A DNA stretch of 40,387 nt, from assembly GCA_020724505.1 (NCBI GenBank), contig DYGV01000002.1, forward strand, positions 29,619 through 70,005. The letters run 5' to 3'. The position numbers and the translations under genes were made by a program. The notes under the pieces were generated by a model. The model saw nothing but the letters and a program-made list of their open reading frames with translations, was not told the origin of the DNA and ran no database searches. Numbering within the stretch: position 1 is the stretch's first letter; each line of letters begins with the position of its first letter. Origin of the DNA: Anaerolinea thermophila (GTDB taxonomy: Bacteria; Chloroflexota; Anaerolineae; Anaerolineales; UBA4823). Positions 821 through 17,359 of the stretch are shown here, piece by piece.

Positions 821-847
821 GGTAAGAATTTTGGCAAGGTCTATCTC
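821..847 (+). promoter_or_regulatory. putative ECF-sigma promoter P1 (GGTAAG-N18-CTC)
   Basis: One of six intergenic, correctly oriented copies of GTAA(G)-N18/19-nTC. It is nearly identical to the copy at 12932-12906 (GGTAAGAATwwTGGCrAGGTC). Confidence 0.65.
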
Positions 848-903
848 TATTGGGCAGAGCGTTGCACGCAGTGCGCGCATTAACCTTAGAAGGAGAAAAG
901 ACC

Positions 904-1347
904 GTGACAACTACAACCTATTCCCTGACAAAAATTAACGCCCGTAACCTCTCGTTAGGCGCCATTGGCGGACTTGTGGGAGGTGTGCCATTCGGCATGA
1001 TGATGGCAATGATGGGCATGATGCCGATGATCGGCATGTTGATCCGAGTGGAAAACGCCACCGTGGGCTGGGTCGTCCACCTGGTAATCAGCGTGGTAGT
1101 CGGTGCGCTTTATGGTCACTTTGCCCCCGCCTTCTCGCAAACATGGAAATCCGCCACAATAGCAGGCGTAGTCTATGGCGTGATCTGGTGGGTGCTGGGC
1201 GCACTGATTCTGATGCCCGCCATGCTCGGCATGTTCCAGATGATCTTCGTCATTGGGCAGACGCAGTGGCTCAGCTTGATGGGTCACATCATTTACACAA
1301 CGATCACAGCCTGGGTGTTCAAAGCGCTGATTGATCGTGGCGGATAG
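904..1347 (+). CDS. Met-rich 4-TM membrane protein with two conserved His (paralog of 16823-17272)
   Basis: GTG start at 904 after AGGAG; four hydrophobic segments; FGMMMAMMGMMPMIGM, GWVVHL, LMGHIIY. Confidence 0.8.
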   Translation: MTTTTYSLTKINARNLSLGAIGGLVGGVPFGMMMAMMGMMPMIGMLIRVENATVGWVVHLVISVVVGALYGHFAPAFSQTWKSATIAGVVYGVIWWVLGALILMPAMLGMFQMIFVIGQTQWLSLMGHIIYTTITAWVFKALIDRGG

Positions 1348-1385
1348 ACTTGGGGCGAACCAATACACTTCAATTACAATAGCAT

Positions 1386-1437
1386 AGATCCCGCAGGTTG
1401 AATGCACGAATTTCTGTGACACACCTGCGGGAAATCT
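1386..1437 (+). other. intergenic stem-loop (possible terminator or attenuator)
   Basis: TCCCGCAGGT (1389-1398) and ACCTGCGGGA (1423-1432) form perfect 10-bp arms, followed by a short T run. Confidence 0.45.
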
Positions 1438-1448
1438 TTTAATGCGAG

Positions 1449-2672
1449 ATGTCGATGAAAAATATCCCTTCCTCAAACAAATGGCGGACTCTCCTCCTGC
1501 TGGCTTTCGCCGAATTGCTTGGCATGTCGGTCTGGTTTTCAGCGTCGGCAGTCGTCCCTGCGTTGACACAAGCCTGGTCGTTGACCGATTCGGGGCGCGC
1601 CTGGTTGACGATGTCGGTACAGATCGGTTTTGTGGTCGGGGCGTTTGGTTCGGCGCTCTTCAATCTCTCTGACCTCATCCCTGCCCGCCGCTTTTTTACG
1701 GCATCTGCAATGCTGGCGGCAATATCAACTGCCCTGATCCCGTTGATCGCGTTCAATCTATTTCCTGCGCTGATCCTTCGTTTTCTTACTGGTTTATTTC
1801 TCGCAGGTGTTTACCCCGTTGGTATGAAAATCATGGCAACCTGGACTCAAAAGGATCGCGGGCTTGGCATCGGTCTCCTGGTTGGCGCTCTCACGATTGG
1901 TTCTGCTGCGCCTCACCTTCTCAATGCTTTTGGCGGGGTGAACGACTGGAAGTCCGTTATGTTGTGGGCAGCAACGCTGGCAGGAAGCGGCGGTTTGATC
2001 GCATTGCTTTTTGTAGAAGAAGGTCCGTATAAAACTTCTTTACCAAAATTCAATTGGAAATACGTTGGTGAAATCTTCACCGAACGACCACTTCTCATGG
2101 CGAACCTGGGCTATCTCGGTCATATGTGGGAGTTGTATGCCATGTGGGCGTGGGTTCCTGTTTTTCTGAGCGCGAGTTTCAAACTTACGGGACAAAACCC
2201 AACCTTTGCAGGTCTGGCGGCGTTTGCGACGATAGGCATGGGCGGAGTCGGGAGTCTGGCGGCGGGTCAACTTGCAGATCGGCTGGGCAGGACGAAGGTC
2301 ACGATTGCCGCGTTGCTCGTCAGCGGAACATGCGCGTTGTGCGTGGGATTCTTCTTCGGGCAGAATCCCATCTGGCTGATTCTCATCTGCCTCATCTGGG
2401 GCTTTGCCGTCGTTGCCGACTCCGCCCAGTTTTCCGCCGCCATCAGCGAGATGTGTCGGACGGAATACACTGGCACTGCCCTGACTCTACAAACCAGCCT
2501 GGGCTTTCTCCTGACCCTTATCACCATCCGCCTCATCCCGACGCTCGAAGGCTGGTTCGGCTGGCGCTGGGCATTTTCCTTTCTGACGATTGGTCCCGCG
2601 CTTGGCATATGGGCGATGTACACATTGCGAAAGCTGCCAGAAGCAAAATCTCTGGCTGGGGGAAAGGGATAA
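1449..2672 (+). CDS. MFS transporter
   Basis: 407 aa with about 12 hydrophobic segments; GQLADRLGRTK MFS motif A; LILRFLTG. Confidence 0.92.
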   Translation: MSMKNIPSSNKWRTLLLLAFAELLGMSVWFSASAVVPALTQAWSLTDSGRAWLTMSVQIGFVVGAFGSALFNLSDLIPARRFFTASAMLAAISTALIPLIAFNLFPALILRFLTGLFLAGVYPVGMKIMATWTQKDRGLGIGLLVGALTIGSAAPHLLNAFGGVNDWKSVMLWAATLAGSGGLIALLFVEEGPYKTSLPKFNWKYVGEIFTERPLLMANLGYLGHMWELYAMWAWVPVFLSASFKLTGQNPTFAGLAAFATIGMGGVGSLAAGQLADRLGRTKVTIAALLVSGTCALCVGFFFGQNPIWLILICLIWGFAVVADSAQFSAAISEMCRTEYTGTALTLQTSLGFLLTLITIRLIPTLEGWFGWRWAFSFLTIGPALGIWAMYTLRKLPEAKSLAGGKG

Positions 2673-2681
2673 TCTCAACCC

Positions 2682-2712
2682 TTGACCTTCCAGTGACTGG
2701 AAGGTGTACACT
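2682..2712 (+). promoter_or_regulatory. MerR-family (CueR-box type) promoter/operator
   Basis: -35 TTGACC (2682-87), 19-bp spacer, -10 TACACT (2707-12). Perfect dyad ACCTTCCAGT-G-ACTGGAAGGT (2685-2705), which is ACCTTCC-N7-GGAAGGT. Confidence 0.92.
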
Positions 2713-2736
2713 GGTTTTGCCTTGCAAGGAGCGAGC

Positions 2737-3147
2737 ATGAAAATTCAAGAGTTGACAAAAAGCACAGGCATAAGCGCCAAGACAATTCGCTATTACGAAG
2801 GGATTGGTATCTTGCCTGCACCTGCCCGCACCGAAAATAACTATCGCCGCTATACCGAACAGGATGTAGAACGTTTGCGTCTCGTGGCAGGTGCACGGCG
2901 GCTGGATTTGTCTTTGGATGACATTCAGGAAATCATTGCTCTGCGTGATCGCCGCGAAGCGCCGTGCCGTGTGTTGCTGGAGCGGTTGGAACACAAAGCC
3001 GATGAAATTGCCGAACGTATCCTTGAATTGAAGCGGCTTGAGCATGAACTGCGCGAACTGTACGCGCTCGGTTCAACCTTCCCTGTGGATGATGTGGAAG
3101 GCAAGCATTGCGTCTGTCACCTTGTAAGCGAACATGCCAAAGAGTAG
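2737..3147 (+). CDS. merR: MerR family heavy-metal-responsive regulator
   Basis: Start re-called to ATG 2737 after AAGGAG. MKIQELTKSTGISAKTIRYYE...NYRRY HTH; Cys77 plus C-terminal C125-x-C127. Confidence 0.9.
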   Translation: MKIQELTKSTGISAKTIRYYEGIGILPAPARTENNYRRYTEQDVERLRLVAGARRLDLSLDDIQEIIALRDRREAPCRVLLERLEHKADEIAERILELKRLEHELRELYALGSTFPVDDVEGKHCVCHLVSEHAKE

Positions 3148-3156
3148 GAGCAATGT

Positions 3157-3387
3157 ATGTCAAATCTATTCAAGAATTTCAATCCGCTCAAAACGGGAAT
3201 CATTGGCTCGCGCGTCGCCGCCCTGTGCTGTTTCACCCCCATTCTGGTTATCCTGTTAAGTACACTGGGAGTGAGTTGGCTAACGGGTTATCTCGATTAT
3301 GTGCTTTTTCCAGTGATGTTTATCTTTATTGGTCTGACTGCTTATGGTCTTTATCGCCAATCAAAATCAAAAGCCACAAACGAATAA
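3157..3387 (+). CDS. merF: mercury transport protein MerF
   Basis: 76 aa, two TMs, AALCCFTPILVILL...LTGYLDYVLFP MerF signature. Confidence 0.88.
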   Translation: MSNLFKNFNPLKTGIIGSRVAALCCFTPILVILLSTLGVSWLTGYLDYVLFPVMFIFIGLTAYGLYRQSKSKATNE

Positions 3388-3407
3388 CTCTGTCTTCGGA
3401 GAAATAA

Positions 3408-4277
3408 ATGTGGATTCTTCTTGCCTTGAGCGCAGCAACGCTGACTTCCTTCAACCCCATTCTTTATAAGCGAATATTGAAAGATGCAGACTCGTTGATC
3501 GTTGTGTGGGGCGTTACCCTGCTGGCATTGCCGTTGTTGGGTTTGTTTGCGATTGCACTCACACCGCAATTTCCCAAAGTGGATCGGCTATTTGCGATTG
3601 GCGTGTTGGGGTCGGCAGGCATGAATGCTGTGGCGCATCTTGCTTCAACGCGCGCATTGAAACTGGCGGATGTTTCATTGGTCACGCCGTTGCTGATCTT
3701 TAGCCCAGTATTTACTGTGTTGATTTCTGCTTTCTTTCTCGGCGAGATTCCCTCTCTGCGCGGATTGGTCGGCGTGGGACTGGTTCTCCTTGGGGCATAT
3801 TGGCTCAATTATCGTTCAGGCACAAATTGGTTCACGCCGTTCAAATCGCTTGCCTTCACACCCGCTGTTGCACTTGTTCTGCTGGCTGGATTGCTCTGGG
3901 CAATTACACCGCTATTGGAGAAAACAGCCATCCTGCATACAAACCCAGAAAGCCCGCGCTTTGCGGCATTCGTAGTAGACGCTCTCTTAACCATCACATT
4001 AACTCCAGCGGTCATTGCGCGCGGCAAGTCAGCCATTATCAAACTTTCTCTCCATCGCCGTGAATTTTTTCTTGCAGGTCTGATCGCGGGCATTGCGCCC
4101 GTGTTGGGGTATACCGCGTTCAGCCTCGGCTTCGTTGGATACGTAACAACACTTTTCAAGCTCAGCGCGCTGATGACTGTGTTCTGGGGTTTTCTCTTTC
4201 TCAAAGAAGGCGGGATGACGCAACGATTGCCCGCTTCATTGGTGATGGTGACAGGCGTCATCCTGATCGCGTCGTAA
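3408..4277 (+). CDS. EamA/DMT family transporter
   Basis: 289 aa with about 10 TMs; ALKLADVSLVTPL...SAFFLGE and LFLKEG repeat halves. Confidence 0.88.
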   Translation: MWILLALSAATLTSFNPILYKRILKDADSLIVVWGVTLLALPLLGLFAIALTPQFPKVDRLFAIGVLGSAGMNAVAHLASTRALKLADVSLVTPLLIFSPVFTVLISAFFLGEIPSLRGLVGVGLVLLGAYWLNYRSGTNWFTPFKSLAFTPAVALVLLAGLLWAITPLLEKTAILHTNPESPRFAAFVVDALLTITLTPAVIARGKSAIIKLSLHRREFFLAGLIAGIAPVLGYTAFSLGFVGYVTTLFKLSALMTVFWGFLFLKEGGMTQRLPASLVMVTGVILIAS

Positions 4278-4302
4278 TTCTGTTTAATCGCAGGAGTTCA
4301 AA

Positions 4303-5736
4303 ATGGAAAATGAATTCGACCTTGTAATTCTAGGTTCAGGCTCCACCGCCTTTGCCGCGGCAATCCGCGCGGCGGAACTGGACAGGACCGCCGCCATGAC
4401 CGAAATGCGGACGCTGGGCGGAACGTGCGTCAATCGGGGCTGCCTTCCGAGCAAGAATCTCATCGAAGCGGCGCGCATTGTCTGGGAGGCGGCGCATCCG
4501 CGCTATAAGGGACTCAAGTCCGCCAAAATGGATTTCAACTTTGCGGAACTGATCTCCCAAAAGCAGGATGTCGTTCATGCCTATCGAGATAAAAAATATC
4601 AATCCATTTTGACGGACGATGACAACATCAAGGTCTTTGAAGGCAAGGCGGAATTGATTGACGCGCACACTGTCCGCATGGGAGAAAGCATCTTAAGCGG
4701 CGACCAGATTCTCGTCGCGACAGGGACGCGTCCTGTCATCCCCCAGATTGAAGGCTTGGACAATGTGCCTTATCTCACCTCCGACCTGCTCACTTCAGAC
4801 GAAGCGCAGGAGTTAAAGGAACTGCCTGAATCGCTGGTCATCGTCGGCGCGGGATATATCGCGCTCGAACTGGGGCAGATGTTCCACCGCTTCGGAACGC
4901 GCGTCACGATTTTGGAACGCAGTCAGGTCATCCTGCCGCGCTATGAACCCGAAGTATCGGATTCGTTGACGTTCATTCTGCGCAAGGAAGGATTGAAAAT
5001 TGTTACTGAAGCGCAGGTCACGCGCGTTTCTCATAACTCCCAAAATGAAATCGAAGTGACGGCAAACGTGGGCGGGAAGGCGCAAACATTCAAGGCGCAG
5101 AAACTTCTGATTGCCGCAGGTAGACAGCCGAACACCGATGGCATTGGCTTGGAGAAAGTCGGCGTGCAATTGGATGAACATGGTTTTGTGAAGGTGAACG
5201 ACGAACTGCAAACCAGCGCCCCAAACATCTGGGCGGCAGGCGATGTAATTGGGAATCAGACTGAAAGCCAGCCTGCCACACCTGTCGGCGCGCATGACGG
5301 CGTGATCGTTGCAAAGAATGCGCTTGCAGGCGCGCATCAAATGATTGACCATCGTGTGATCCCGCGTGTAATTTTCACTGACCCACAGGTGGCGGTTGTC
5401 GGTCAGACAGATGAGGAAGTTGTCGGTTCAGGTGTGCGTTGTTGGTGCGGAACAATTCCGCTGGAATATGTCCCACGTGGAGGCGCGACCCATCAAACCG
5501 ACGGCATTGCCAAAATCGTGATTGACCGCGACACACAGGAAGTGAAGGGCGTCTCGCTGGTCATGCCCAACGCAGGAGAAGTGATCCACGAGGCGGCGAT
5601 GGCGATGCGCTTTCGCGCCAGACTAGAGGACTTCATTGACATGATTCACGTCTATCCCACAATGGCGGAGGCATTGAAGATCGCGGCGATTTCGTACTTC
5701 AAAGACCCCGCCAAGTTATCGTGCTGCGCGGAATAG
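4303..5736 (+). CDS. merA: mercuric reductase MerA (no N-terminal NmerA domain)
   Basis: GSGSTA FAD loop, [13 protein letters not shown] redox disulfide, GAGYIALE, C-terminal KLSCCAE vicinal Cys pair; lies in a mer operon. Confidence 0.93.
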
Positions 5737-5761
5737 GCACAATTTTTGGAAATGAAAATGC

Positions 5762-5785
5762 GGGTTGATTCCAGCCCTCTTTTTT
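5762..5785 (+). terminator. putative rho-independent terminator after merA
   Basis: GGGTTG-attc-CAGCCC hairpin followed by a T run. Confidence 0.5.
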
Positions 5786-5812
5786 CATTCACCCAAACAG
5801 GATCCCTGACGG

Positions 5813-6388
5813 TTACGAAAATTTTCTTTTGAATTGCTGAATGAGTTTCGGTAAAAACAGATACCCCAATAACACGATATTGATTCCCAACTCGACCCAG
5901 AAGAATTGACTCGCGTAATGTGCCCTGTCCCAGTAACTGACAGGACTATTGAAGCGCGTATGCCAATCAAAAGGGAAGAAGAGCACGGGACCATCGTTGT
6001 AATGAGTGAAGATGTCAATCACGGAATGCACCATGCAGCCAAAGACAAAGGATAGCCACCAATGTCCACGTGTGTTGGGTTGGTTTCTATGGCGCCAGAG
6101 AAAAATGGCATACAACAGCAAGGCGGTTGGCGAATGCAGCAAATTATGGCTGGCGACCCACAATGGATTGTTGAAGTACAGATTGTCAAATGCGTTGTTC
6201 ATCATTCCAGATACTGGCTGGGTGGCAACATGGCGGTTGTAAAGAAAATACCCAATCGACAATAACCCAAGTGGAATATCAGGTGCGACAGAACCCCACA
6301 GAAAAGGGGATTTGGCTAGTTTGAACTTTGTTCCAATCCTTTTCTCAATGGCGGCATTGATAACAAGATGAGTGGGAAATGTGTTCAA
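5813..6388 (-). CDS. membrane-bound metal-dependent hydrolase-like protein
   Basis: His-rich motifs TH, GSVAPD, HNLLHS, HSVIDIFTH-x-x-DG with hydrophobic segments. The TTG start overlaps the upstream TGA. Confidence 0.75.
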   Translation of the reverse strand: MNTFPTHLVINAAIEKRIGTKFKLAKSPFLWGSVAPDIPLGLLSIGYFLYNRHVATQPVSGMMNNAFDNLYFNNPLWVASHNLLHSPTALLLYAIFLWRHRNQPNTRGHWWLSFVFGCMVHSVIDIFTHYNDGPVLFFPFDWHTRFNSPVSYWDRAHYASQFFWVELGINIVLLGYLFLPKLIQQFKRKFS

Positions 6389-6918
6389 AATGTTTTCAAC
6401 ACCTTCAGCAACGCATCCACAGACGGTCTGTCTGTCGGATCGTGACTCGGATGGACGAGACGCAGGATGCCATCCTTATCCACAATGAAGTCGCCGCCGA
6501 GTTGGGATGTATCGTCGCCGTGGGAGTCGTAGAATGTGCCGCGCTGAAACCAGCGTTTGATGTAAACCCAGACTACGCGGGGATGCCATGAACGCCAACG
6601 GGAGCGTTCGAGTCGGTAGGCTTTGTAGATTGTTCGGTCGTGGTCAACGAGGACAGTGAATGTATGACAGACTTCATCCAGCCATTGTTGGAGCGCGGGA
6701 AGCGTTCCAAAGGAAATGATGAAGACGCGTGTATTGAGTTCTGCAAATTCTTCCTGGCGCGCGCACAACTGTGCGGCATGTTCGCGGCAGGGAATTCAGC
6801 CGAGGTGACGGAGGAAAACTAACAGGGCGTTTCCGTTTTTGAGTACATCGCTAAGTGTGACTTGTTCGCCGTCGAGGGTTTGCATGGTGAAGTCGGGGGC
6901 TGGTGAATTGAGTTTCAT
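6385..6918 (-). CDS. peroxiredoxin-like (AhpC/TSA, SelL/SelU-like) selenoprotein, UxxC, Sec41
   Basis: From ATG 6918: MKLNSPAPDFTMQTLDGEQVTLSDVLKNGNALLVFLRHLG-TGA(6798-6796)-IPCREHAAQLCARQEE..., in frame with ORF 6385-6768 (QLGGDFIVDKDG...DRP). The TGA sits at the first Cys position of CxxC, with a hairpin downstream. Confidence 0.88.
6751..6795 (-). promoter_or_regulatory. putative bacterial SECIS element
   Basis: Upper stem CGCAC-AGUU-GUGCG, with the loop 25 nt after UGA and G at loop position 2. Lower pairing is UUCC(C)UG.CGCG with CGCG.CAGGAA. Confidence 0.65.
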
Positions 6919-7540
6919 GTGTCAGGTTCCAAGTCTCAGGTGTCAAGTTTTGTTTTGCCCATAGAAGTCGTTGAACAATAGTGACGAATACAAACGCGGC
7001 AAATATGGAAAACAATACCGTGATGTATGTGGGAAAGAGCAGGAAGATTCCATAAGCGATGATCGTTTCAAATCCGCCGATGAGACCTGCTGGCATGACG
7101 ATGGCGGTTTGTGTATCGGGCGTATGTAAGGCGCGTTTTTCAAGAATAGCGGCGAGATACATCCACGAGGCAGAGTTGATGTAGAAGGACGCGAGCATTA
7201 AGGCTAAGGCGAGATAACGCTCCATCGTCGGCGAACCAGCTACCAGTCCAATGGGAAGCGCGGCGTAGACGATGAAATCGGTCAGGATGTCCACGTATCC
7301 GCCGAAGTCGGATTGCCTGTCGTGCAGACGCGCGATCAAGCCGTCGAGCCCATCCAGGACGCGGTTGAGAATCCAAAATCCAAGTGCAACGAAATAGGAT
7401 TGGGTGAAAGCGAACCACGCGGCGAGCAGACCTGCAACAAGAGCGAGGATAGTAATAAGGATGGGGGGGACGCGGCTCAAACTCTGCGCAAGCGGCGCAC
7501 CAACTTGATCCTTGAATTTGCGAAGAGGTGTATCGAGCAT
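6851..7540 (-). CDS. CDP-alcohol phosphatidyltransferase family protein (YnjF-like)
   Basis: LDGLDGLIAR...FGGYVDILTD matches the D-G-x2-A-R-x8-G-x3-D-x3-D signature. Confidence 0.9.
   Translation of the reverse strand: MLDTPLRKFKDQVGAPLAQSLSRVPPILITILALVAGLLAAWFAFTQSYFVALGFWILNRVLDGLDGLIARLHDRQSDFGGYVDILTDFIVYAALPIGLVAGSPTMERYLALALMLASFYINSASWMYLAAILEKRALHTPDTQTAIVMPAGLIGGFETIIAYGIFLLFPTYITVLFSIFAAFVFVTIVQRLLWAKQNLTPETWNLTHETQFTSPRLHHANPRRRTSHT
6914..6948 (-). repeat. five degenerate tandem heptamers
   Basis: Minus strand: ACTTGAC ACCTGAG ACTTGGA ACCTGAC ACATGAA. Confidence 0.55.
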
Positions 7541-9250: not shown

Positions 9251-9254
9251 ACAG

Positions 9255-9596
9255 TTATGCTCTCACTGGAGCTTTGAGCAACCCATCCACCTTGGCTTTG
9301 ATAGCGGGAGCGGGCGCGGCACCAACGATGGTATCCCTGACCAACCCATCCCTGATAAAGAGCAGGGTTGGAATCCCTTGTATGCCATATTTCATCGCCC
9401 ATTGCGGATTCTCATCCGTATTGACCTTGGCGATGGTCAGTTTGTCTCCGTACTCTGCGGCTAATTTTTCTAGGACAGGTGCGATCATTTTACAGGGGGT
9501 ACACCAGGGCGCCCAGAAATCCACAACCACAGGGGTAGTCGATTTAATGACCGTGGTTTCAAATTCAGCATCAGTTATATGTAAGGGTGTATTCAT
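9255..9596 (-). CDS. trxA: thioredoxin
   Basis: [18 protein letters not shown]...IQGIPTLL. Confidence 0.95.
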
Positions 9597-9614
9597 TTTG
9601 GTTCTCCTTGTTGT

Positions 9615-10121
9615 TTAGTGTTCAAATATTTTTTCGCCGGCGCGGACAGCCACCTTGATACGATTTTCGGCTGGCGTAATTGGACAGGACCATTGTTCGT
9701 TGTAGGCGCAGTATGGGTTGTATGCTAGATTGAAATCCACGAGGAATTTTCCATCGGGGAGTTTTTCAGGTTCAAGATAGCGCCCTGCGGGATAAGATTC
9801 TTTCCCTGCCAGCGTATCTACAAAGGGAAGAAAGTATCCGTGCCCATTTTTGTAGATCGTGAGTTCCGCCGACTGCCCATCCACTTGAAACTTGAATTTG
9901 CCGAAACGTTGATAAGTTTGAGGCTGTCCGCCTGTGGTCTGGATTGTGATACTTTCTGAGGTTGGCAAGATTTCCACGTTCACTTCGAGGCGCAATGCAT
10001 TATTTTCAGGGAAATAATCGAGTCCCTTGAAATGCTGTTTCTGGAACGGTGTCAATGGACTTTGATGGTGGCGCGCATAGAATTGGTCTTTTTCAGCGCG
10101 GAAGGTTTTGAGGGATTGCAT
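9615..10121 (-). CDS. DUF1684 domain protein
   Basis: FRAEKD...SPL...GLDYF...GRYL...DFNLAYNPYCAYNEQWSCP...ENRIKVAVRAGEK. Confidence 0.88.
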   Translation of the reverse strand: MQSLKTFRAEKDQFYARHHQSPLTPFQKQHFKGLDYFPENNALRLEVNVEILPTSESITIQTTGGQPQTYQRFGKFKFQVDGQSAELTIYKNGHGYFLPFVDTLAGKESYPAGRYLEPEKLPDGKFLVDFNLAYNPYCAYNEQWSCPITPAENRIKVAVRAGEKIFEH

Positions 10122-10150
10122 GTTTTGTCTCCTTATTCTTCAACCACAGA

Positions 10151-10177
10151 GAGGACAATCGAGGTCTTTTTCTTACC
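10151..10177 (-). promoter_or_regulatory. putative ECF promoter P2 (GGTAAG-N18-CTC)
   Basis: 30 nt upstream of the DUF1684 start, heading the trxA-halogenase operon. Confidence 0.6.
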
Positions 10178-10201
10178 TGCCAACTGAGACGCGTAATTGG
10201 A

Positions 10202-10435
10202 TCACGATTGCCCCTTCTTGATGCTGAGAACTGTGGAAGCGCTAGAAACTGTGGAAACAATATACGGTACACAAACCGTCAGGATGATTTTCAACACGCG
10301 GGTAGGATCCATTTGCCCATGCAGCAATGCGTCTCCATGATTGATAGCTGTCAGTATGGCGCCTACGATGAGCGCGGTGTAGCTTGCCCGCCGTACAATA
10401 TCCCTAGAAAAACATAGTGTAAGAAAATCTTTCAT
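10202..10435 (-). CDS. nrtS: NrtS-family small membrane protein
   Basis: ALIVGAILTAINHGDAL...KIILTVCVPYIVST family motif. Confidence 0.75.
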   Translation of the reverse strand: MKDFLTLCFSRDIVRRASYTALIVGAILTAINHGDALLHGQMDPTRVLKIILTVCVPYIVSTVSSASTVLSIKKGQS

Positions 10436-10439
10436 ATTC

Positions 10440-10700
10440 CTATATCAGACGGGTTTCGAAGAGTTTTTCAGATAACCTGGTATTGGTTGGCTCGACTAAA
10501 ATGGAGCCATCGCCAAAGACAATGGTTGGAACACTGCGATTGCCACGGTTTGTAGTTTTGACGAATTTTTCGCCTTCACGATCTTTGTCAATATCAATCC
10601 AGTTATAGGGAATCTGGTGTTCGTCCAGCAGGCGTTTTGTGCGTCTGCAATCCCCGCACCAATCGGTGCCATAGACAGTGATGCCAGGTTGGTGGTTCAT
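10440..10700 (-). CDS. mycoredoxin/NrdH-like glutaredoxin
   Basis: YGTDWCGDCRR...GNRSVPTIVFGDGSILVEP. Confidence 0.9.
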   Translation of the reverse strand: MNHQPGITVYGTDWCGDCRRTKRLLDEHQIPYNWIDIDKDREGEKFVKTTNRGNRSVPTIVFGDGSILVEPTNTRLSEKLFETRLI

Positions 10701-10711
10701 TGGTTCCTCTT

Positions 10712-11473
10712 TCAGTTCTGGCTCAGTTGAGCGATTTGTTCAGAAGTCATACCATCCACAACGGGGAGGTCGCCCTGCTCCTGCAGATGGAGTTTCCCGA
10801 ATGTATCGAGCATGTGACCGGACTTTTCGGCTTTGGTCTTTAGATAAAATTCGTTGTGCGGATTGGGCGGGATGATGACGGGAATGCGTCCGTTGACTTT
10901 CACGCCGTGCTGGGTCAGGTTTTCGATTTTGCGCGGGTTGTTGGTCATCAACTGAATCGATTTGACCTTCAAGGAAAACAGCATGTGCGCGGCAACACTG
11001 TATTCGCGCTCGTCATCGCGAAAGCCCAGGGCAAGGTTGGCATCCACGGTATCGTAGCCATGATCCTGCAATCCATAGGCGCGGATTTTATTGATCAAGC
11101 CAATACCGCGCCCCTCCTGACGCATGTAGAGCAGAATGCCCTTGTCCATTTTCCCAATTTCCTTGAGCGCGGTTTCCAACTGGTCGCGGCAGTCACAACG
11201 CAGGGAGCCTATCGCATCGCCGGTCAGGCATTCCGAATGGACGCGGACTGGCACGTTTTCCGCATTCGTCACATCGCCGCGTACGATGGCGGTATGTTCC
11301 TTACCATCCCGGTTGTTGTAGAAAGCAAAGATGTGAAAGTCTCCAAAGCGCGAGGGTAACTCGCCGATGGCGGCGATGCGTACACAGACCTTGTCCGGTC
11401 CGAAGCCTTCGCATTCGTGTTTCAGGTTTTCATCGAGCAGTTCCTTGATTTGCATGTGTGTGAGTGACATCAT
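10712..11473 (-). CDS. ribA: GTP cyclohydrolase II
   Basis: VRVHSECLTGDAIGSLRCDC, QEGRGIGL, LMTNNPRK, KSGH. Start re-called to ATG 11473 after AAGGAG. Confidence 0.95.
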   Translation of the reverse strand: MMSLTHMQIKELLDENLKHECEGFGPDKVCVRIAAIGELPSRFGDFHIFAFYNNRDGKEHTAIVRGDVTNAENVPVRVHSECLTGDAIGSLRCDCRDQLETALKEIGKMDKGILLYMRQEGRGIGLINKIRAYGLQDHGYDTVDANLALGFRDDEREYSVAAHMLFSLKVKSIQLMTNNPRKIENLTQHGVKVNGRIPVIIPPNPHNEFYLKTKAEKSGHMLDTFGKLHLQEQGDLPVVDGMTSEQIAQLSQN

Positions 11474-11520
11474 GTCTCCTTGTGAAATCAATAATTGAGT
11501 ATAGATTGGGTGGATATGAT

Positions 11521-12141
11521 CTATCCTGTTAATGCTGTTTGGGGATAGCCTACATAAACAGTGACATCTTCCATAAAATCACAACTTTCCTGCCAGGTCT
11601 CGAAGGGCAGGTCTTCGAAATCTCCGGCAAGTTGATGAAAGGGTTCGGTCATCATGATGTATTCATGGGACGGAATTGAGTTTTTCAATAACTGATGAAT
11701 TAGGATCACATCCTCACCTGCCATTTCATCGAATTGTCGAATCTTCCTGAACACAGCCTCGCCGAGATGCAGAATGGCTTTCAAGCGCAGGTCAAAGATG
11801 CGCTGGCAGGCGTCGCAGTCGCAGTCCGCTCTTTCAATGGACAAGGAATGAACGCGTTCGTAAAAGACCCTGAAAAATTCCCGTACCTGGCGAGCCACAT
11901 CCCGGGCGACCTCGATCTGGTCTCCTGCATTTACTTCTGCATATAGAAATGCCGCATCGCCCTCCAGCTTGTTCAAAGTCAATGGATACGCGGCGTGATC
12001 GATTACCGCCTCCAGCAATTCGAAGACGATCTCCTCGGCATGGATGGCGCTCAACTTTTGTGAGCGAATGAACTGTGTGTAACCGCTGATGTCCACCATA
12101 ACCAGCGCCACTTTTCTTGTGTCCATCATCCTTCCTTTCAA
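11521..12141 (-). CDS. DUF2652 domain protein (class III nucleotide-cyclase-like fold)
   Basis: MVDISGYTQF, KLEGDAAF, CDCDAC, LKAILHLGE, GEDVILIHQLLKN. Confidence 0.85.
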   Translation of the reverse strand: MKGRMMDTRKVALVMVDISGYTQFIRSQKLSAIHAEEIVFELLEAVIDHAAYPLTLNKLEGDAAFLYAEVNAGDQIEVARDVARQVREFFRVFYERVHSLSIERADCDCDACQRIFDLRLKAILHLGEAVFRKIRQFDEMAGEDVILIHQLLKNSIPSHEYIMMTEPFHQLAGDFEDLPFETWQESCDFMEDVTVYVGYPQTALTG

Positions 12142-12848
12142 CTAGCATAGAGCGGAATGCGTGCGCCGTTGATCATCCGCGCCTCGCCTGAACTTAGGAA
12201 CAGGAGAGCCGAAGCAATATCCTCCGGCGTTGTCCAACTTGAATTCTCATCGTCGGGTTTTTGATCGCGTACATGTTCGGTGTCGATCTTTTTTACAAGC
12301 AGAATGTTGGCAGTGATCCCGCTTCCCTTGACCTCTTCTGCAATCGTTCTGAGCAAAATCTCCTGTGCCGACTTGCCGATGGCGTATGGTGCCATATCCG
12401 CCACCGGGTCGGAGGCAAGTGGCGATGAAACGGCGAGAATACGCCCCCAATGGTTGGAGAGCATTAACGGGAGCACGTCCCTCGTCAAGTGATAAGTTGT
12501 CCATAAATGCTGTTGAAGCATGGACTCCACCTGTTCGCGGTCCGATTCGACCACAGACTTGCCTCCGCTCCATCCCCCCACCAAGTGAAGCAGGATATCA
12601 ATTCGCCCGAATTTATCCATCGCCTGCCGCACCAGGTCGGAGGTTCGTTCGGGTTGGCATAAATCGGCGACGCTGATCAGGACGCGTTCCCTGGGTAATT
12701 TCAATTCCTCCTCGAGCGACTGGACCCTTTCCAGGTTGGTCCCGACTAGTACGAGCCGGACGCCCCGATCTGCAAACTGCCTGGTGACAATCTGCCCCAG
12801 CCTGCCTGTGGCGCCGGTAATAACAGCGACGCGATTATTGATGCTCAT
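12138..12848 (-). CDS. SDR family oxidoreductase
   Basis: TGATGRLG Rossmann motif and YAIGK. Start re-called to ATG 12848 (MSINNRVAV) after GGAG. Confidence 0.9.
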   Translation of the reverse strand: MSINNRVAVITGATGRLGQIVTRQFADRGVRLVLVGTNLERVQSLEEELKLPRERVLISVADLCQPERTSDLVRQAMDKFGRIDILLHLVGGWSGGKSVVESDREQVESMLQQHLWTTYHLTRDVLPLMLSNHWGRILAVSSPLASDPVADMAPYAIGKSAQEILLRTIAEEVKGSGITANILLVKKIDTEHVRDQKPDDENSSWTTPEDIASALLFLSSGEARMINGARIPLYAS

Positions 12849-12905
12849 TATGAATCTCCAAAAGATTGTTGATTTCGGTTGACGCTGCCGAAAATCTATA
12901 CTGGT

Positions 12906-12932
12906 GATACCGACCTCGCCATTATTCTTACC
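12906..12932 (-). promoter_or_regulatory. putative ECF promoter P3 (GGTAAG-N18-ATC)
   Basis: Upstream of the SDR-DUF2652-ribA-grx unit. Confidence 0.65.
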
Positions 12933-13000
12933 CGCCCATGATTCTTGCAAAATAGCAATGTTGGATTCCAACAGGCGAACACACTGTAATTGAATCGGGA

Positions 13001-13027
13001 TGTAAGTCATTCACCTCAAGCTGCGTC
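13001..13027 (+). promoter_or_regulatory. putative ECF promoter P4 (TGTAAG-N18-GTC)
   Basis: 35 nt upstream of ORF 13062, heading the deiodinase-like unit. Confidence 0.6.
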
Positions 13028-13061
13028 AATGGGATAAAACCCGACTGGGAAGGAAAAGCCC

Positions 13062-13403
13062 ATGAACGAACACACTCAAAAACTGCAAGCCATCCTTGAA
13101 AAAGAATCCCTGACTGCCAAAGAGGTGCAAGATGGTGTCGTTACCTGCTTCTTTGCCATCAACCGCGATTTTGTGAAGCGCCGCATGGGTGACATCCCAG
13201 TTGAACAGGTGGATGGGGTACTGCAAGAATTGGTCACTCAGGTTCTTGATGAACATCACATTGATCCTGAAAAGCCCGAACTCTATCTATTACAACAGGC
13301 AGAGTTGGCGCTGGAGGAACAGACTGGATTCGAGACTGAACCGGACCTGCTCCAGATGCACAAAGGCATTGTCCAAACCTTGTTCTCGCGAGCAAAAAAT
13401 TGA
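13062..13403 (+). CDS. hypothetical protein (acidic, helical)
   Basis: 113 aa ORF with AGGA RBS; fills the gap between the promoter and the selenoprotein gene. Confidence 0.7.
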   Translation: MNEHTQKLQAILEKESLTAKEVQDGVVTCFFAINRDFVKRRMGDIPVEQVDGVLQELVTQVLDEHHIDPEKPELYLLQQAELALEEQTGFETEPDLLQMHKGIVQTLFSRAKN

Positions 13404-13445
13404 AGCGCGGTTTTCTTCATTCCCAGATTTTGATTGGAGACCCAC

Positions 13446-14147
13446 ATGGATGATCGGTTGACCCGCTACAACTACGATAGTTTCGTACCCGAGAAATTCG
13501 AGCCGTGGATGAACTTCGAAGCCAGCCCGAAGACAGGCACCGTTGGGTTGGATTTCCCGTTATGGGATTTGGATCAAACGCCCACAAGGCTCAGTGAGAT
13601 CTGGTCGCGGCACGATTACACCATTGTGGAGTTCGGCAGTTTCACCTGACCGTATTGCGGGATGGCGGCGCCATCCATGAATGCTATGGCGGATAAGTAC
13701 GGAGAATACAAAGTTGGGTCAATATTTCTTTATTCTCACGAAGCCCACCCTGGGGAAAATTATCCACACCTGACCTCAATGGAACAGAAATTCCGTCACG
13801 CGCGGGACCTGCGGGATGTCCTCGACGTGACGCGCCCGATCCTGGTGGATTCTCTCGACGGCGCGTGTCACCGCGCCTACGGCTCGATGCCCAATATGAC
13901 CTGGATCTTCGCCCGATCAGGTCTGATCGTTTACAAGTCGGACTGGACGGACGCGCACAGCGTGGAAAATGCGATCCAATATTTCAGCCAAATTCCAAGC
14001 CGACGAAAGGTAGGTGAACGACTGGCGCCCTTCCACGTGGAGCGGCTGGATTACCGCAATCAGGAACGCGAACAGTTTTACAAATGCCTCGAACGCAACG
14101 GCCCCAAAGCCGTGGCGGAGTTTCGCAAGGCGTTTCCTACAGGTTGA
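13446..14147 (+). CDS. iodothyronine-deiodinase-like selenoprotein, UxxC, Sec68
   Basis: ATG 13446 after GGAG; ...IVEFGSFT-TGA(13647-49)-PYCGMAAP.... ORFs 13434-13649 and 13662-14147 are in the same frame. Deiodinase motifs FGSxTU, YSHEAHP, D...AYG..P. Confidence 0.88.
13650..13689 (+). promoter_or_regulatory. putative bacterial SECIS element
   Basis: GGAUGGC-GGC-GCCAUCC hairpin (13660-13676); the loop starts with G, 17 nt after UGA; lower stem GUAUU/AAUGC. Confidence 0.7.
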
Positions 14148-14835
14148 TTCTTTTCTCACGATAACGGACGATGCGATAAAAACCTATGCTGACTGCGAAC
14201 ATCGCCGCAGAGATCACCAATGAAAGTGGATCAAGCCTGACGCTTTGAGATGCAAAATCGCCTTGAATGGACGCGCCTAACATGCCGAATGAAATCGTGC
14301 CAGGGATACTGCCCAGTACCGTCGCCAACATGAACCAACCCAGGTCAATCCGCAGGAAGCCTGAAAAGTAACTGACCAGATCGTAGGGCAGGAACAGGAA
14401 GCGCAAAATCATTGTCGTTTGGAAACTTTCACGCCGAAGACGGTCGGCGTAGATGCCAACTGTTTTATTTTGCTCGATGTTATGCAGAAAGCCGCTCCCG
14501 AAAAAACGCCCGATGAAATAAGCGATCATGGAAGAGAGATTGCTGGCGATCATGGCGTAGGCAATTCCCCGGACAGGACCGTACAGGTAGGTGGCGGTCA
14601 TCGTCACCAGTGTGGCGGGGAAAAGAAAAATGGGGCGAATCATATAAACCAGAACATACAGCGGAAACCCATACGGGCTGTCCGAAACAAAATGAATTAG
14701 CGCCTGCATGGTCTCCATTGGCGTCAAACCGTTGGCGGTTGTGTACCACCAGTAGCTCGCCAGCAGGATCGCCCAGGCAATCATGGCGATCACTTTGCTC
14801 TTGTAGCGCGGGGGCTTTGCGGTTTCTGTGTTCAT
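14137..14835 (-). CDS. TVP38/TMEM64 (VTT/DedA-like) membrane protein
   Basis: RPIFLFPATLVT...LYGPVRG...YFIGRFFG...LRFLFLPYDLVSY...ATVLGSIPG. Confidence 0.88.
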   Translation of the reverse strand: MNTETAKPPRYKSKVIAMIAWAILLASYWWYTTANGLTPMETMQALIHFVSDSPYGFPLYVLVYMIRPIFLFPATLVTMTATYLYGPVRGIAYAMIASNLSSMIAYFIGRFFGSGFLHNIEQNKTVGIYADRLRRESFQTTMILRFLFLPYDLVSYFSGFLRIDLGWFMLATVLGSIPGTISFGMLGASIQGDFASQSVRLDPLSLVISAAMFAVSIGFYRIVRYREKRINL

Positions 14836-15536
14836 GCTTCGACTCGGATGATGTCGCTCTCGGCGAACAAAGGCGGGACGACAATGCCCATGTTCGCATA
14901 CAGTTCTGGCGGGACACTGATGTCGGCGAGATATAAGTCGCCGACGAATTTTTTTGCATCAGGATGCAGCAACCCCTGTTTGGGCAGGGCAAGGGTTAGA
15001 GTTGCTGTCGCACAGATGGTCGGATCGTGCGCTGTGCCACTGGTGACATCCAGCCCTGAGGGCGTGTCAAGAGAGATGATTGGGACATTTTGATTATTTG
15101 CCCAGCGGATCAAATCCGCCGCGGTGCCGCGCGGAGATCCGCTCAGGCTGTAGCCAATGATCGAGTCGAGGATCAGGTTTGGGGTAGGAAGAAGCGAGGC
15201 AGAGTCCACGATGGGAAGCTTCATCCGTTGCAGGATATCCAGTTGATGGGCTGGGACTCCGCGAATTTCATCCCTAGGTTTTGTCAAAACGACAGTGACC
15301 TGCACGCCCCAATTATGCAGACGACCCGCGGCGGTCATCCCGCCCCCGCCATTGTTTCCACTTCCACAGAGGATGACCACGCTGGAGCCTTGTATCGCTC
15401 CGCGCAGTTGACGGCGCGCCAGTTCCGCGAAAGCGCGACCTGCATTTTCCATCATCTGAACCAACTCGATGTGATAATCCTCGATCATGGCGCGGTCCAC
15501 TTCGATCATTTGGGCGGTGGTTAGGGTTGGAAGCAT
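14832..15536 (-). CDS. nnrE: NAD(P)H-hydrate epimerase (YjeF_N)
   Basis: MMENAG, GSGNNGGGG, DSIIGYS, SLDTPSG, TLTLALPK, LADISVP. Start re-called to ATG 15536 after GGAG. Confidence 0.92.
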   Translation of the reverse strand: MLPTLTTAQMIEVDRAMIEDYHIELVQMMENAGRAFAELARRQLRGAIQGSSVVILCGSGNNGGGGMTAAGRLHNWGVQVTVVLTKPRDEIRGVPAHQLDILQRMKLPIVDSASLLPTPNLILDSIIGYSLSGSPRGTAADLIRWANNQNVPIISLDTPSGLDVTSGTAHDPTICATATLTLALPKQGLLHPDAKKFVGDLYLADISVPPELYANMGIVVPPLFAESDIIRVEA

Positions 15537-15561
15537 GTTGTTCTCCACTTTATGCATCAAA

Positions 15562-15588
15562 GATAGTATTCACGGGCGAACTATTACC
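15562..15588 (-). promoter_or_regulatory. putative ECF promoter P5 (GGTAAT-N18-ATC)
   Basis: 26 nt upstream of the re-called nnrE start; divergent from the sigma gene. Confidence 0.6.
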
Positions 15589-15608
15589 TGCTGGTTTATA
15601 ATCCACTT

Positions 15609-16250
15609 ATGGATAAGCGAACCAACGAAGAATGGGTTGCAGATTTACGCGCCGGTGGGGATCGGCAGGCACAGGCATTGGAGGATTTACGCGCCATCAT
15701 ATTGCGAGGATTGCCGTATGCCATTGCAGGAAGACTGGACCCCAACAGCCCCGAGTCGGAAGCGCTGACCGAGGAAGTGGTGCAGGAAACCTTGATGCGT
15801 GTTTTGGAATACCTTGACTCTTTTGAAGGACGCAGTCAATTCACGACTTGGGCACATAAAATTGCTGTGCGCGCCGCACTGACCGAGTTACGCCGCGTGC
15901 GCTGGCGCGAAGTACCCCTGCCCGAAATGAATATGAATGAGGAAAGTGATACTTCCTATCGCGAAACGCCAGATGATCAGGCGAATCCTGAAGAGCAGGT
16001 GTCGCAGGCTGAAATGATGGCGCGGGTCAACCGAATCATCATGGAGGAACTCACCGATAAACAGCGCCAGGCACTGACGGCCATCATGGAAGGTTTCCCG
16101 CTGGAGGAAGCTGCACAACGAATGGGAACCAATCGCAACGCGCTCTACAAGATGCTGCATGATGCCCGTCTGCGGCTGAAGAAACGCTTGGAAAAAGAAG
16201 GACTGACCCCGCAGGAGATTTTGTCTGTATTTGAGCAAGCTCGCAAGTAA
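15609..16250 (+). CDS. ECF RNA polymerase sigma factor
   Basis: EEVVQETLMRV...FEGRSQFTTWAHKIAV (region 2) and LTDKQRQAL...LEEAAQRMGTNRNALYKMLHDARLRLK (region 4). TATAAT at 15597-602 lies 6 nt before the ATG, suggesting a leaderless mRNA. Confidence 0.93.
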   Translation: MDKRTNEEWVADLRAGGDRQAQALEDLRAIILRGLPYAIAGRLDPNSPESEALTEEVVQETLMRVLEYLDSFEGRSQFTTWAHKIAVRAALTELRRVRWREVPLPEMNMNEESDTSYRETPDDQANPEEQVSQAEMMARVNRIIMEELTDKQRQALTAIMEGFPLEEAAQRMGTNRNALYKMLHDARLRLKKRLEKEGLTPQEILSVFEQARK

Positions 16251-16297
16251 GAGATTGAATGGGCATTGCTATCCATGTGTGGAAGGAATTTAGTAGC

Positions 16298-16600
16298 ATG
16301 AAAATAAAACAGTTCATCCAGAGGATTTTGGGTTCCAAAAAACAAAAACCAGCATCTGGTGGAATGTCGGCGAACCCGTCCGAAAAGATGCAAAAGATGA
16401 TGTCGATGTTATCCAATACGCGGGAGGAAGAACTGACCTGTGACGAGGTCTTTGCCCTGCTCGATCAATTTACTGAACTCGCGGCGCAGGGAGAGGATGT
16501 CGCGCAACTGATGCCGCTGGTGCAACAGCACCTGGATATGTGTGAGGATTGCCGGGAGGAATACAAGGTGTTGCAGAGTATCTTGCATGGCACGGCGTAA
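16298..16600 (+). CDS. soluble zinc-binding anti-sigma factor (zf-HC2/RsrA-like)
   Basis: LTCDEV...HLDMCEDCREE matches C...HxxxCxxC; no TM segment; directly after the ECF sigma. Confidence 0.8.
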   Translation: MKIKQFIQRILGSKKQKPASGGMSANPSEKMQKMMSMLSNTREEELTCDEVFALLDQFTELAAQGEDVAQLMPLVQQHLDMCEDCREEYKVLQSILHGTA

Positions 16601-16757
16601 AGAAATGCCGTGAAAGAACGCACTCTTTGATGATTTCTGGAAAATCAAAAAAGCTGTTATCCACAACAATTTGGAAACAGCTTTTTTGATTTAATGAGGC
16701 AGGAAAATTGGGAACACAAAAATGGTGACATTTCAAATTCGTCGATTTCTGAAAGTG

Positions 16758-16785
16758 GGTAAGGGAAATCAGGCGCTTCGCTATC
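16758..16785 (+). promoter_or_regulatory. putative ECF promoter P6 (GGTAAG-N19-ATC)
   Basis: 38 nt upstream of ORF 16823. Confidence 0.55.
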
Positions 16786-16822
16786 AGGTGGGTATGAAAC
16801 CAAATTCAACAGGAGAATCAAA

Positions 16823-17272: not shown

Positions 17273-17294
17273 CTTCTGGTTTTCTTCTCCTCAC

Positions 17295-17328
17295 GGTAGG
17301 CAGCTCGTCCGTGAACGGGCTGCCTACC
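17295..17328. other. strong intergenic hairpin
   Basis: GGTAGGCAGC and GCTGCCTACC form perfect 10-bp arms; no U-tract. Confidence 0.5.
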
Positions 17329-17359
17329 AACTCTCGACATTTGAAAGGAATTTCTTTTC

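Follow-up and report, generated by a model that had tools for sequence, protein, structure and literature searches.

The question raised by a 40,387-nt stretch of an Anaerolinea thermophila genome (the window, G000:C60:29619-70005; source genome of 4.1 Mb in 232 contigs, 89.7% complete) is which regulator reads a short bipartite motif that recurs in front of an island of redox genes. A first-pass annotation of positions 821-16785 had proposed that six copies of the motif, GTAA(G)-N18-nTC, are promoters that place these genes under a sigma factor of the extracytoplasmic function (ECF) type and a soluble anti-sigma factor encoded in their midst. The analysis presented here assigns a probability of roughly 80% to the reading in which the resident ECF sigma factor recognises the motif as its promoter, wired both to feedback through the anti-sigma factor and to a thiol-repair regulon. 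The motif itself is confirmed as a real signal by its position and its conservation, not by its count.

Sites were searched for by reading the sequence by eye and by a regular-expression scan, and all six copies were found where they had been reported. Five have the form GTAA(G/T)-N18-nTC, with the first base of GTAA at 822(+), 10176(-), 12931(-), 13002(+), and 15587(-), and the sixth (GTAA at 16759+) has a 19-nt spacer, which agrees with the earlier description of five equally spaced copies. Start codons were revised on the basis of ribosome-binding sites and conservation (GTG 904, ATG 10121, ATG 12848, ATG 13062, ATG 15536, and ATG 16823). With these starts every copy lies in noncoding DNA and points towards the next gene, as had been stated, and the gap between the C of nTC and the start codon ranges from 25 to 57 nt (56, 29, 57, 34, 25, and 37 nt for the copies at 821+, 10177-, 12932-, 13001+, 15588-, and 16758+, respectively). 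The copy at 12932(-) was at first placed inside an open reading frame (ORF) because the 5' end of that frame had been over-extended by the gene caller. Genome-wide genes were called with this simple purpose-made program, which gave the island genes low scores and over-extended some 5' ends, and the coding and intergenic classes used below are therefore approximate. The number of six copies was too low: a seventh is present in the window at 16247(+) and three more are found 7-10 kb before the window on the same contig.

Two matrices were used to score candidate sites. The relatives-trained matrix, representing a distant clade of the sigma family, consists of two blocks built from 34 sites in 16 loci, all from other genomes and with sigma identities of 45-62% (consensus GGTAAGAAT-N14-CGTCnA). 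The close-clade matrix was built from 18 close relatives (sigma identity 74-91%) with the window genome left out. Both strands of the whole genome were scanned with each matrix. The relatives-trained matrix placed a site before the window (C60:~22435+) at rank 1, two sites beside a paralogous sigma gene on contig C64 at ranks 2 and 3, the copy at 821(+) at rank 4 (18.5 bits), and a further site before the window (C60:19315-) at rank 7. Overall, 30 matches in the genome reached 15 bits, nine of which are intergenic and gene-facing, and seven of these nine lie at the two sigma loci. The six highest ranks of the close-clade matrix were held, in this order, by 16247(+) with 29.3 bits, 15588(-), 16758(+), C60:~22435+, 10177(-), and 12932(-).

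The individual copies differ in how well they match the two matrices and in the breadth of their conservation. Copy 1 (821-847, plus strand, GGTAAGAA-N16-CTC; close-clade rank 16) precedes a gene for a Met-rich membrane protein whose homologues carry a site within 200 nt in all eight loci. Copy 2 (10151-10177, minus strand; relatives-trained rank 12) precedes the DUF1684-trxA operon, and the DUF1684 homologue has a site within 200 nt in 29 of the 37 loci with enough upstream DNA. Copy 3 (12906-12932, minus strand; relatives-trained rank 74) precedes an operon that runs from a short-chain dehydrogenase (SDR) gene through DUF2652 and ribA to grx, and its boxes are also found upstream of the SDR or neighbouring genes in five close relatives. 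Copy 4 (13001-13027, plus strand, TGTAAG-N18-GTC) precedes the unit of a 113-aa protein and a candidate selenoprotein; it holds rank 28 with the relatives-trained matrix and lies outside the top 45 with the close-clade matrix, and GTAAG-N18-nTC precedes the homologue in four of four relatives compared by eye. Copy 5 (15562-15588, minus strand, GGTAAT-N18-ATC; relatives-trained rank 225) precedes nnrE-VTT, is arranged back to back with the proposed promoter of the sigma gene, and is kept in position throughout the close clade. Copy 6 (16758-16785, plus strand, GGTAAGGG-N..-GCTATC with N19) precedes the unit of a DUF6789-like protein and a glutaredoxin-thioredoxin reductase fusion (Grx-TrxB). 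It scores below 9 bits with the relatives-trained matrix, and its boxes are kept in at least 15 relatives although the upstream flanks are unrelated.

Conservation was followed through loci related to the region around the sigma gene, of which a collection scan returned at least 594. The best 80 were used for site density, 94 nonredundant loci for a per-gene table (sites up to 3 kb upstream on the same strand, counted over the loci that hold a homologue), and 96 for a tally of the first gene after each site of at least 14 bits. In the 80 best loci (750 kb) there are 173 matches of at least 13 bits, compared with about 15 expected from the background of the window genome. The motif accompanies the sigma gene in the 94 nonredundant loci, which supports the proposal that the two belong together. 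Upstream alignments show that both boxes are kept in front of orthologous genes while flanks and spacers diverge (close-relative consensus GGTAAG(A/G)-N-(C/T)(T/A/C)TC; wider-family consensus GGTAAGAAT-N14-CGTCTA). Counted over all sites, the -10 block lies a median of 21 nt before the start codon, a value that rises to 34 nt when the anti-sigma sites are set aside. Within the window genome, the stricter pattern GGTAAG-N18/19-nTC has 142 matches, ten of which lie between genes and point at one no more than 300 nt away; the window contig holds seven of these ten within 28 kb, and an eighth, at 12932(-), falls in the over-called 5' end described above.

The most conserved copy is the seventh (16247-16273, plus strand), which lies at the junction of the sigma and anti-sigma genes. 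The TAA of its GTAAG is the stop codon of the sigma gene, followed by N19 and ATC, and the copy holds rank 49 with the relatives-trained matrix. A counterpart is found at the end of the sigma gene in 71 of 80 loci, and in 68 of 80 the TAA within GTAAG serves as the stop codon of the sigma gene. The start of the anti-sigma gene was set at ATG 16298 and not at 16259 because the close clade keeps GAAGGAA and then ATGAAA after the -10 element. The sequence and conservation of copy 7 suggest that it drives the anti-sigma gene, a homologue of which is present in 86 of 94 related loci.

The sigma factor itself (15609-16250, plus strand, 213 aa) is of the ECF type, with Pfam matches to Sigma70_r2 (residues 37-100) and Sigma70_r4_2 (residues 145-190) and no Pfam match to region 3. 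It scored 79.8 bits against TIGR02937 (cut-off 42.9); in the 25 best of 72 matches, no model of a specific NCBIfam subfamily was reached at its own cut-off. The best of its solved relatives are distant (E. coli RpoE, E = 1.7e-7; M. tuberculosis SigH, E = 5.9e-4, 23 bits), and SigH matches more weakly than RpoE, SigW, and CnrH. Of 40 relatives sampled from the order, 15 have an orthologue with 45-90% identity. When the phylum was sampled evenly, a family member (E <= 1e-40) was present in 21 of 301 genomes, almost all of them from that order, and public relatives are labelled almost wholly as Anaerolineales or Chloroflexota metagenome-assembled genomes. The family is largely limited to the order Anaerolineales (Chloroflexota).

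No copy of the motif precedes the sigma gene in the window, and only one of the 80 related loci has a same-strand copy in the 200 nt before the gene. A TATAAT hexamer is found instead at 15597-15602 (plus strand), 6 nt before the sigma ATG, and is proposed as a housekeeping-type promoter. A perfect TATAAT stands 6-7 nt before the ATG in all 17 of the 18 close-clade loci that have enough upstream DNA, and 60 of the 68 related loci in which the match starts at the ATG have a TATAAT-like hexamer, exact in all but two loci, that ends 4-9 nt ahead of the ATG. The sigma mRNA is probably leaderless because the gap between TATAAT and ATG leaves no room for a ribosome-binding site, and the sigma gene is probably read from this housekeeping-type promoter. 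By its layout the gene appears not to be under its own control; an upstream autoregulated promoter is common but not universal in the ECF family. A generic sigma-70 promoter scan of the window returned 19 sites, compared with 18.8 expected, and the TATAAT of the sigma gene was not among them. In nine distant-clade loci (L064, L081, L090, L091, L097, L099, L100, L104, and L107) the sequence (G/A)TAAGA occurs about 26 nt upstream of the TATAAT, and ATAAGA is found at the same distance in six others (L065, L071, L079, L092, L106, and L108). The element has a constant distance to the TATAAT and the orientation of the sigma gene but lacks an nTC at N18; it might be a remnant or an alternative form of a sigma-dependent -35 element, or the site of another protein.

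The second gene of the pair (16298-16600, plus strand) encodes a putative zinc-finger-type anti-sigma factor of 100 aa. The earlier description of a soluble C..HxxxCxxC protein agrees with what was found in the family. C48, H78, C82, and C85 (C-x29-H-x3-C-x2-C) are invariant in 79 of 79 sequences and in a 24-row alignment, and a membrane segment (mean hydropathy >1.6 over a 19-residue window) was detected in none of 78 anti-sigma factors, the maximum of the window protein being 0.55. A model of the sigma/anti-sigma complex scored 0.87, while the best of three controls scored 0.00, and passed a mark that 58 of 80 solved complexes and 2 of 110 mismatched pairs also attain. Three runs share at least 75% of the contacts, with a partner pLDDT of at least 78, and the anti-sigma factor contacts sigma residues 30-95 and 133-209 and both the sigma-2 and the sigma-4 domain, which it is predicted to clamp. 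The pass may in part reflect likeness because sigma/anti-sigma complexes of other families are solved. The stand-alone AF2 model of the anti-sigma factor has a mean pLDDT of 67, and a Foldseek search with it against the PDB returned nothing at E <= 0.001. A VIA fold search with the same model returned generic helical rows only (Z <= 7.7), with the membrane anti-sigma factor DdvA at a rank of 47 that is not meaningful.

For the transcription units behind the remaining six copies, Pfam and NCBIfam agree with the gene content that had been claimed (thioredoxin, glutaredoxin, Grx-TrxB, ribA, nnrE, and a halogenase-like gene). The gene behind copy 1 (904-1347, plus strand, GTG 904 after AAGGAG) encodes a membrane protein of 147 aa with 9.5% Met and three hydrophobic segments and matches no Pfam or NCBIfam family. 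Copy 2 faces a packed operon (5813-10121, minus strand) encoding DUF1684 (with a Cx7C motif), thioredoxin, a FAD halogenase-like protein, a CDP-alcohol phosphatidyltransferase, an AhpC/TSA_2 protein, and a YdjM-like membrane protein. The operon behind copy 3 (10202-12848, minus strand) encodes the SDR, DUF2652, GTP cyclohydrolase II, glutaredoxin, and an NrtS-like small membrane protein. Copy 4 is followed by a two-gene unit (13062-14147, plus strand) in which a 113-aa protein without a known family precedes a thioredoxin-fold candidate selenoprotein (13434-14147), and copy 5 by NAD(P)H-hydrate epimerase (YjeF_N, its ATG following GGAG) and a VTT/DedA-type membrane protein (14137-15536, minus strand). 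Finally, the unit behind copy 6 (16823-19282, plus strand) encodes a DUF6789-like Met-rich membrane protein (14.1% Met, four hydrophobic segments), Grx-TrxB, and a second DUF2652 protein. Two of the products are candidate selenoproteins, each with an in-frame TGA at the first position of a UxxC motif: the deiodinase-related thioredoxin-fold protein at 13434-14147 (SFTUPYC) and the AhpC/TSA_2 protein at 6385-6849, minus strand (HLGUIPC).

Most of the targets that had been listed also stand behind a site in relatives. A site was found for trxA in 9 of 9 loci, Grx-TrxB in 16 of 17, nnrE in 21 of 24, DUF1684 in 30 of 38, the halogenase-like gene in 8 of 9, the two Met-rich membrane protein genes in 8 of 8 and 18 of 18, the AhpC-like selenoprotein in 5 of 6, and ribA in 2 of 2. 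The weak member of the list is the selenoprotein at 13434-14147, with a site in two of eight loci. In the tally over 96 loci, the first gene after a site was the anti-sigma gene for 79 sites, DUF1684 for 28, one of the Met-rich membrane protein genes for eight and six, NnrE for eight, thioredoxin for four, and DUF2652 for three.

The regulon reaches beyond the window. The three further sites (G000:C60:18085-24619, L109 6086-12620) precede a DUF3179 gene, a unit with a GrdB-like second ORF, and a unit of a VTT protein and a pyridine-nucleotide-disulphide oxidoreductase, which brings the length of the island to about 30 kb. Two ORFs in this region (L109 7393-9164) were considered as a single selenoprotein, which was rejected because they lie in different frames. 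Furthermore, a paralogous pair is encoded on another contig (G000:C64:6366-8154, L110), with 56% identity to the sigma factor and 40% to the anti-sigma factor of the window. It has its own motif copies at 8086(-), 6396(-), and, at the sigma stop codon, 7144(+), with the same -35 box, and it adjoins a homologue of the Met-rich membrane protein; its -10 elements are of the CATC type, compared with CCTC or TATC in the island. Because of the three sites before the window and of this second pair, the picture of a self-contained regulon within 821-16785 had to be given up.

A circuit consistent with these features would run as follows. The sigma factor would be made from the housekeeping-type TATAAT promoter as a leaderless mRNA, outside its own control. 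Downstream of the sigma gene, the sigma-dependent promoter that uses the TAA stop in its -35 element would drive the anti-sigma gene, and the soluble product would hold the sigma factor by the predicted clamp on sigma-2 and sigma-4. Oxidation or modification of its cysteines would free the sigma factor, as suggested by analogy with RsrA and RshA and by the content of the regulon. The freed sigma factor would then fire at least ten promoters on the contig, seven of them in the window, starting transcription of the units for thioredoxin, glutaredoxin, the Grx-TrxB fusion, DUF1684 with its Cx7C motif, NAD(P)HX epimerase, GTP cyclohydrolase II, the two UxxC candidate selenoproteins, the halogenase-like flavoprotein, and the two Met-rich membrane proteins, and the induced anti-sigma factor would switch the response off. 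By analogy, the system is best read as a switch for thiol-oxidant stress like the actinobacterial SigR-RsrA and SigH-RshA.

Several results weigh against this reading and are set out here together with the alternatives on which they bear. Some of them concern the anti-sigma factor. It has no Pfam or NCBIfam family match, and the best match of its profile in the PDB, RsrA (5frf), is marginal (E = 0.062), the alignment pairing the first Cys and the His. Some HxxxCxxC anti-sigma factors do not sense redox and answer other signals or none. It is possible, though the less favoured view, that the pair controls the island but that the anti-sigma factor senses a signal other than disulphide stress (hypohalous acids or halogenating agents, electrophiles, metals, or singlet oxygen), or that it merely buffers the sigma factor. 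The odd members of the regulon, namely the Met-rich membrane proteins, the halogenase-like flavoprotein, and the deiodinase-related selenoprotein, would suit such a signal, as would the presence of DUF1684 in a hypochlorite-linked thiol regulon of Haloferax (PMC9426492). On the other hand, the core that the regulon keeps is made up of thioredoxin, Grx-TrxB, and glutaredoxin, a classic set for thiol repair, and all four zinc/redox ligand positions are invariant. A further result concerns the promoter of the anti-sigma gene. Three metatranscriptome runs of the same study yielded two contigs that match the window, both from one run. One is 100% identical over 16244-16423 and crosses the proposed anti-sigma promoter instead of beginning behind it; the other, with about 92% identity over 16726-16822, derives from a relative. 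Assembled contigs of this kind cannot show start, strand, or level, and may stem from DNA carry-over. The first contig fits read-through from the sigma gene or such carry-over.

Other results concern which sigma factor reads the sites. The window genome has seven matches to ECF-type sigma factors, and the resident sigma factor is linked to the motif by adjacency and conserved co-occurrence. Cross-recognition is possible because a 56%-identical paralogue with a similar motif is encoded in the same genome. In nine sigma-bearing genomes, four of the 11 DUF1684 copies examined have a site upstream. Among five DUF1684-bearing genomes in which no sigma family member was found, one (G021; 98% complete, 580 contigs) has an 18.9-bit site 57 nt before DUF1684 (G021:C282, L116); the best sigma-profile match in this genome reached 62.9 bits. 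An alternative that accepts the sites as real ECF promoters would have them read wholly or partly by the paralogue on C64, or by both sigma factors, and the island would then not be a private regulon. The shared -35 box of the C64 pair speaks for this view, as do the CGTC-type -10 element at 13001(+), which is typical of the distant clade, and a second genome (G038) that likewise carries one sigma factor of each clade. Against it, the -10 element differs by paralogue, being (C/T)TATC or CCTCT, often with N19, in the close clade and C(G/A)TC(T/A)A with N18 in the distant clade, a difference that suggests partial insulation of the paralogues. In relatives with a single copy of the sigma gene, moreover, the sites still cluster at that one gene. 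Control by the paralogue is thus considered unlikely.

The bipartite motif might also be the site of a DNA-binding regulator rather than a promoter, since a MerR-family protein (2704-3147) is encoded in the island. This is very improbable: the motif is asymmetric, always directed towards the downstream gene, has a fixed gap of 18-19 nt, and lies at promoter-like distances from the starts. It tracks the sigma gene and not the MerR gene over the 94 loci, with a MerR homologue in one of 16 gene-mapped loci, and a copy is embedded in the sigma/anti-sigma junction in 68-71 of 80 loci.

The expectation that the motif would be more frequent than background held for its intergenic placement and conservation but not for its bare count, which is close to chance and is weak evidence. 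In the window, GTAAK-N19-TC has nine matches, compared with 4.88 +/- 2.03 in shuffled sequences (five of 100 shuffles reach nine), and GGTAAG-N19-TC has three, compared with 0.46 (three of 100 shuffles reach three). Across the genome, GTAAG-N18-nTC has 205 matches and spacings of 16-20 give 243-282, so that a spacing of 18 is not preferred. Part of the close-clade matrix score reflects common descent because that matrix was built from orthologous promoters. A match at 38537(-) in the window scores 17.3 bits with the relatives-trained matrix inside a coding region, with a spacing one base short; taken as a chance match, it shows the false-positive level of this matrix. That all copies are chance matches, together with sequence inherited unchanged among close relatives, is nevertheless scarcely credible, even with counts near chance and coding matches that score like real sites, since a matrix from distant loci puts island sites at the top of the genome the boxes persist where the flanks are unalignable, and the 80 best loci have 173 matches, compared with about 15 expected.

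The favoured reading, an ECF promoter wired to anti-sigma feedback and thiol repair, was compared with known systems. The closest in layout is SigH-RshA of Corynebacterium glutamicum (ECF12), in which a gene for an ECF sigma factor is likewise followed by one for a small soluble HxxxCxxC anti-sigma factor (PMC3489674). There, sigH-rshA is transcribed from housekeeping promoters while a SigH-dependent promoter drives rshA alone, for which the authors propose a fast shut-off (PMC3489674). The same combination of housekeeping promoters for the sigma gene and a feedback promoter for the anti-sigma gene alone is suggested here by sequence (71/80, 68/80, and 60/68 loci, as given above). PrshA lies inside sigH, 62-66 nt before rshA, whereas here the -35 element contains the sigma stop codon. 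Both regulons are centred on the thioredoxin system, and both promoters consist of a five-base -35 core, 18 nt, and a three-base -10 core. The letters differ: the ECF12 (SigR/SigH) promoter is GGAAT-N18-GTT (PMC3489674), compared with GTAAG-N18-(C)GTC or TATC here. Because of this difference, and because the sigma factor is not closely related to SigR or SigH, it appears not to be an ECF12 member. Unlike the SigH-RshA system, the neighbourhood examined here has no heat-shock or SOS part.

SigR-RsrA of Streptomyces coelicolor shares with the present pair a soluble zinc/cysteine anti-sigma factor, with an N-terminal Cys and HxxxCxxC, and a thiol-repair regulon. It differs in phylum, motif, and members, the selenoproteins, DUF1684, and Met-rich membrane proteins being found here, and also in that SigR switches on its own gene through a SigR-dependent promoter that lies upstream (PMC7826278), whereas one of 80 loci has the motif upstream of the sigma gene. 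A likeness in gene content only is seen with OxsR of Haloferax volcanii, whose NaOCl-stress regulon includes DUF1684 (Cx7C), thioredoxin, glutaredoxin, and thioredoxin reductase (PMC9426492). The DUF1684 protein of the window also has the Cx7C motif, but OxsR is a TrmB-family thiol-based transcription factor of an archaeon and not a sigma/anti-sigma pair. With ECF promoters in general (RpoE, SigW, and the ECF21 and ECF30 predictions; PMC7826278), the motif shares its bipartite form, its rigid spacing, and a -10 element of the CGTC(T) type found in the wider family; its -35 element is GGTAAGAA, compared with the usual (G)GAAC or GCAAC type. The part of the ECF classification supplement that was covered (PMC7826278) lists no GTAAG/TAAGA motif and no Anaerolinea entry, and the rest of it may describe the group. 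A literature search found no description of this sigma family. The combination of an ECF sigma factor, a zinc/cysteine anti-sigma factor, and a thiol-repair regulon is of a known kind and is found here in a poorly studied order.

A wider reading that joins a family-wide hard-wired circuit, insulated paralogous regulons, and a defence against halogen stress is offered only tentatively and is doubtful as a whole. In the first part, the sigma factor may be constitutive and leaderless, and the sole sigma-dependent promoter of the pair may sit on the sigma stop codon, with feedback through the anti-sigma factor alone. In the second, the -10 elements of the paralogues could have drifted apart, to TATC/CCTC often with N19 on the one side and CGTC/CATC with N18 on the other, in both the window genome and G038. 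In the third, the Met-rich membrane proteins would be possible sacrificial sinks, acting with the UxxC selenoproteins, DUF1684, and the halogenase- or dehalogenase-like flavoprotein against hypohalous or halogenating stress.

The Anaerolineales are abundant and mostly uncultured Chloroflexota in which gene regulation is almost unknown, and a sigma factor, an anti-sigma factor, a promoter consensus, and a set of conserved targets can now be proposed for them. The proposed regulon would tie DUF1684, DUF2652, the DUF6789-like and other Met-rich membrane proteins, and the two UxxC candidate selenoproteins to thiol-oxidant defence. ECF surveys in which the promoter is sought upstream of the sigma gene may miss families whose only nearby copy lies downstream. 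The sigma factor and its promoter could also serve as orthogonal parts for synthetic circuits.

The origin of the island was considered separately. The nearest relatives of the sigma factor (85-91% identity) are found in another family of the order, and one of eight genomes of the same genus has a family member, at 56% identity. The GC content of the window is about 51%, compared with 54.3% for the genome, and the island genes score low in a coding model trained on the genome. The relatives in another family, the low coding scores, and the lower GC content suggest that the island was transferred horizontally or that contig C60 was mis-binned.

A few further features of the window remain to be described. 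The anti-sigma gene is followed by a terminator-like hairpin with an A-run and a U-run (16642-16692, plus strand; -24.1 kcal/mol, z = -7.2), which was not among the 28 sites returned by a simple terminator scan of the window (22.7 expected). No Rfam family matched anywhere in the window at gathering scores. After the first unit, positions 2704-5736 encode the MerR-family regulator, an EamA transporter, and a second pyridine-nucleotide-disulphide oxidoreductase, which is 87% identical to the product of a gene near the sigma gene in G038 (L013) and has a site within 3 kb in one of five loci. These genes may be part of the regulon or of a MerR circuit. Between the DUF6789-like and Grx-TrxB genes lies a stem-loop without a U-run (17295-17328; -27.7 kcal/mol, z = -4.5), which may serve for attenuation, processing, or stabilisation; by eye, close relatives have hairpins of other sequence at the corresponding position.

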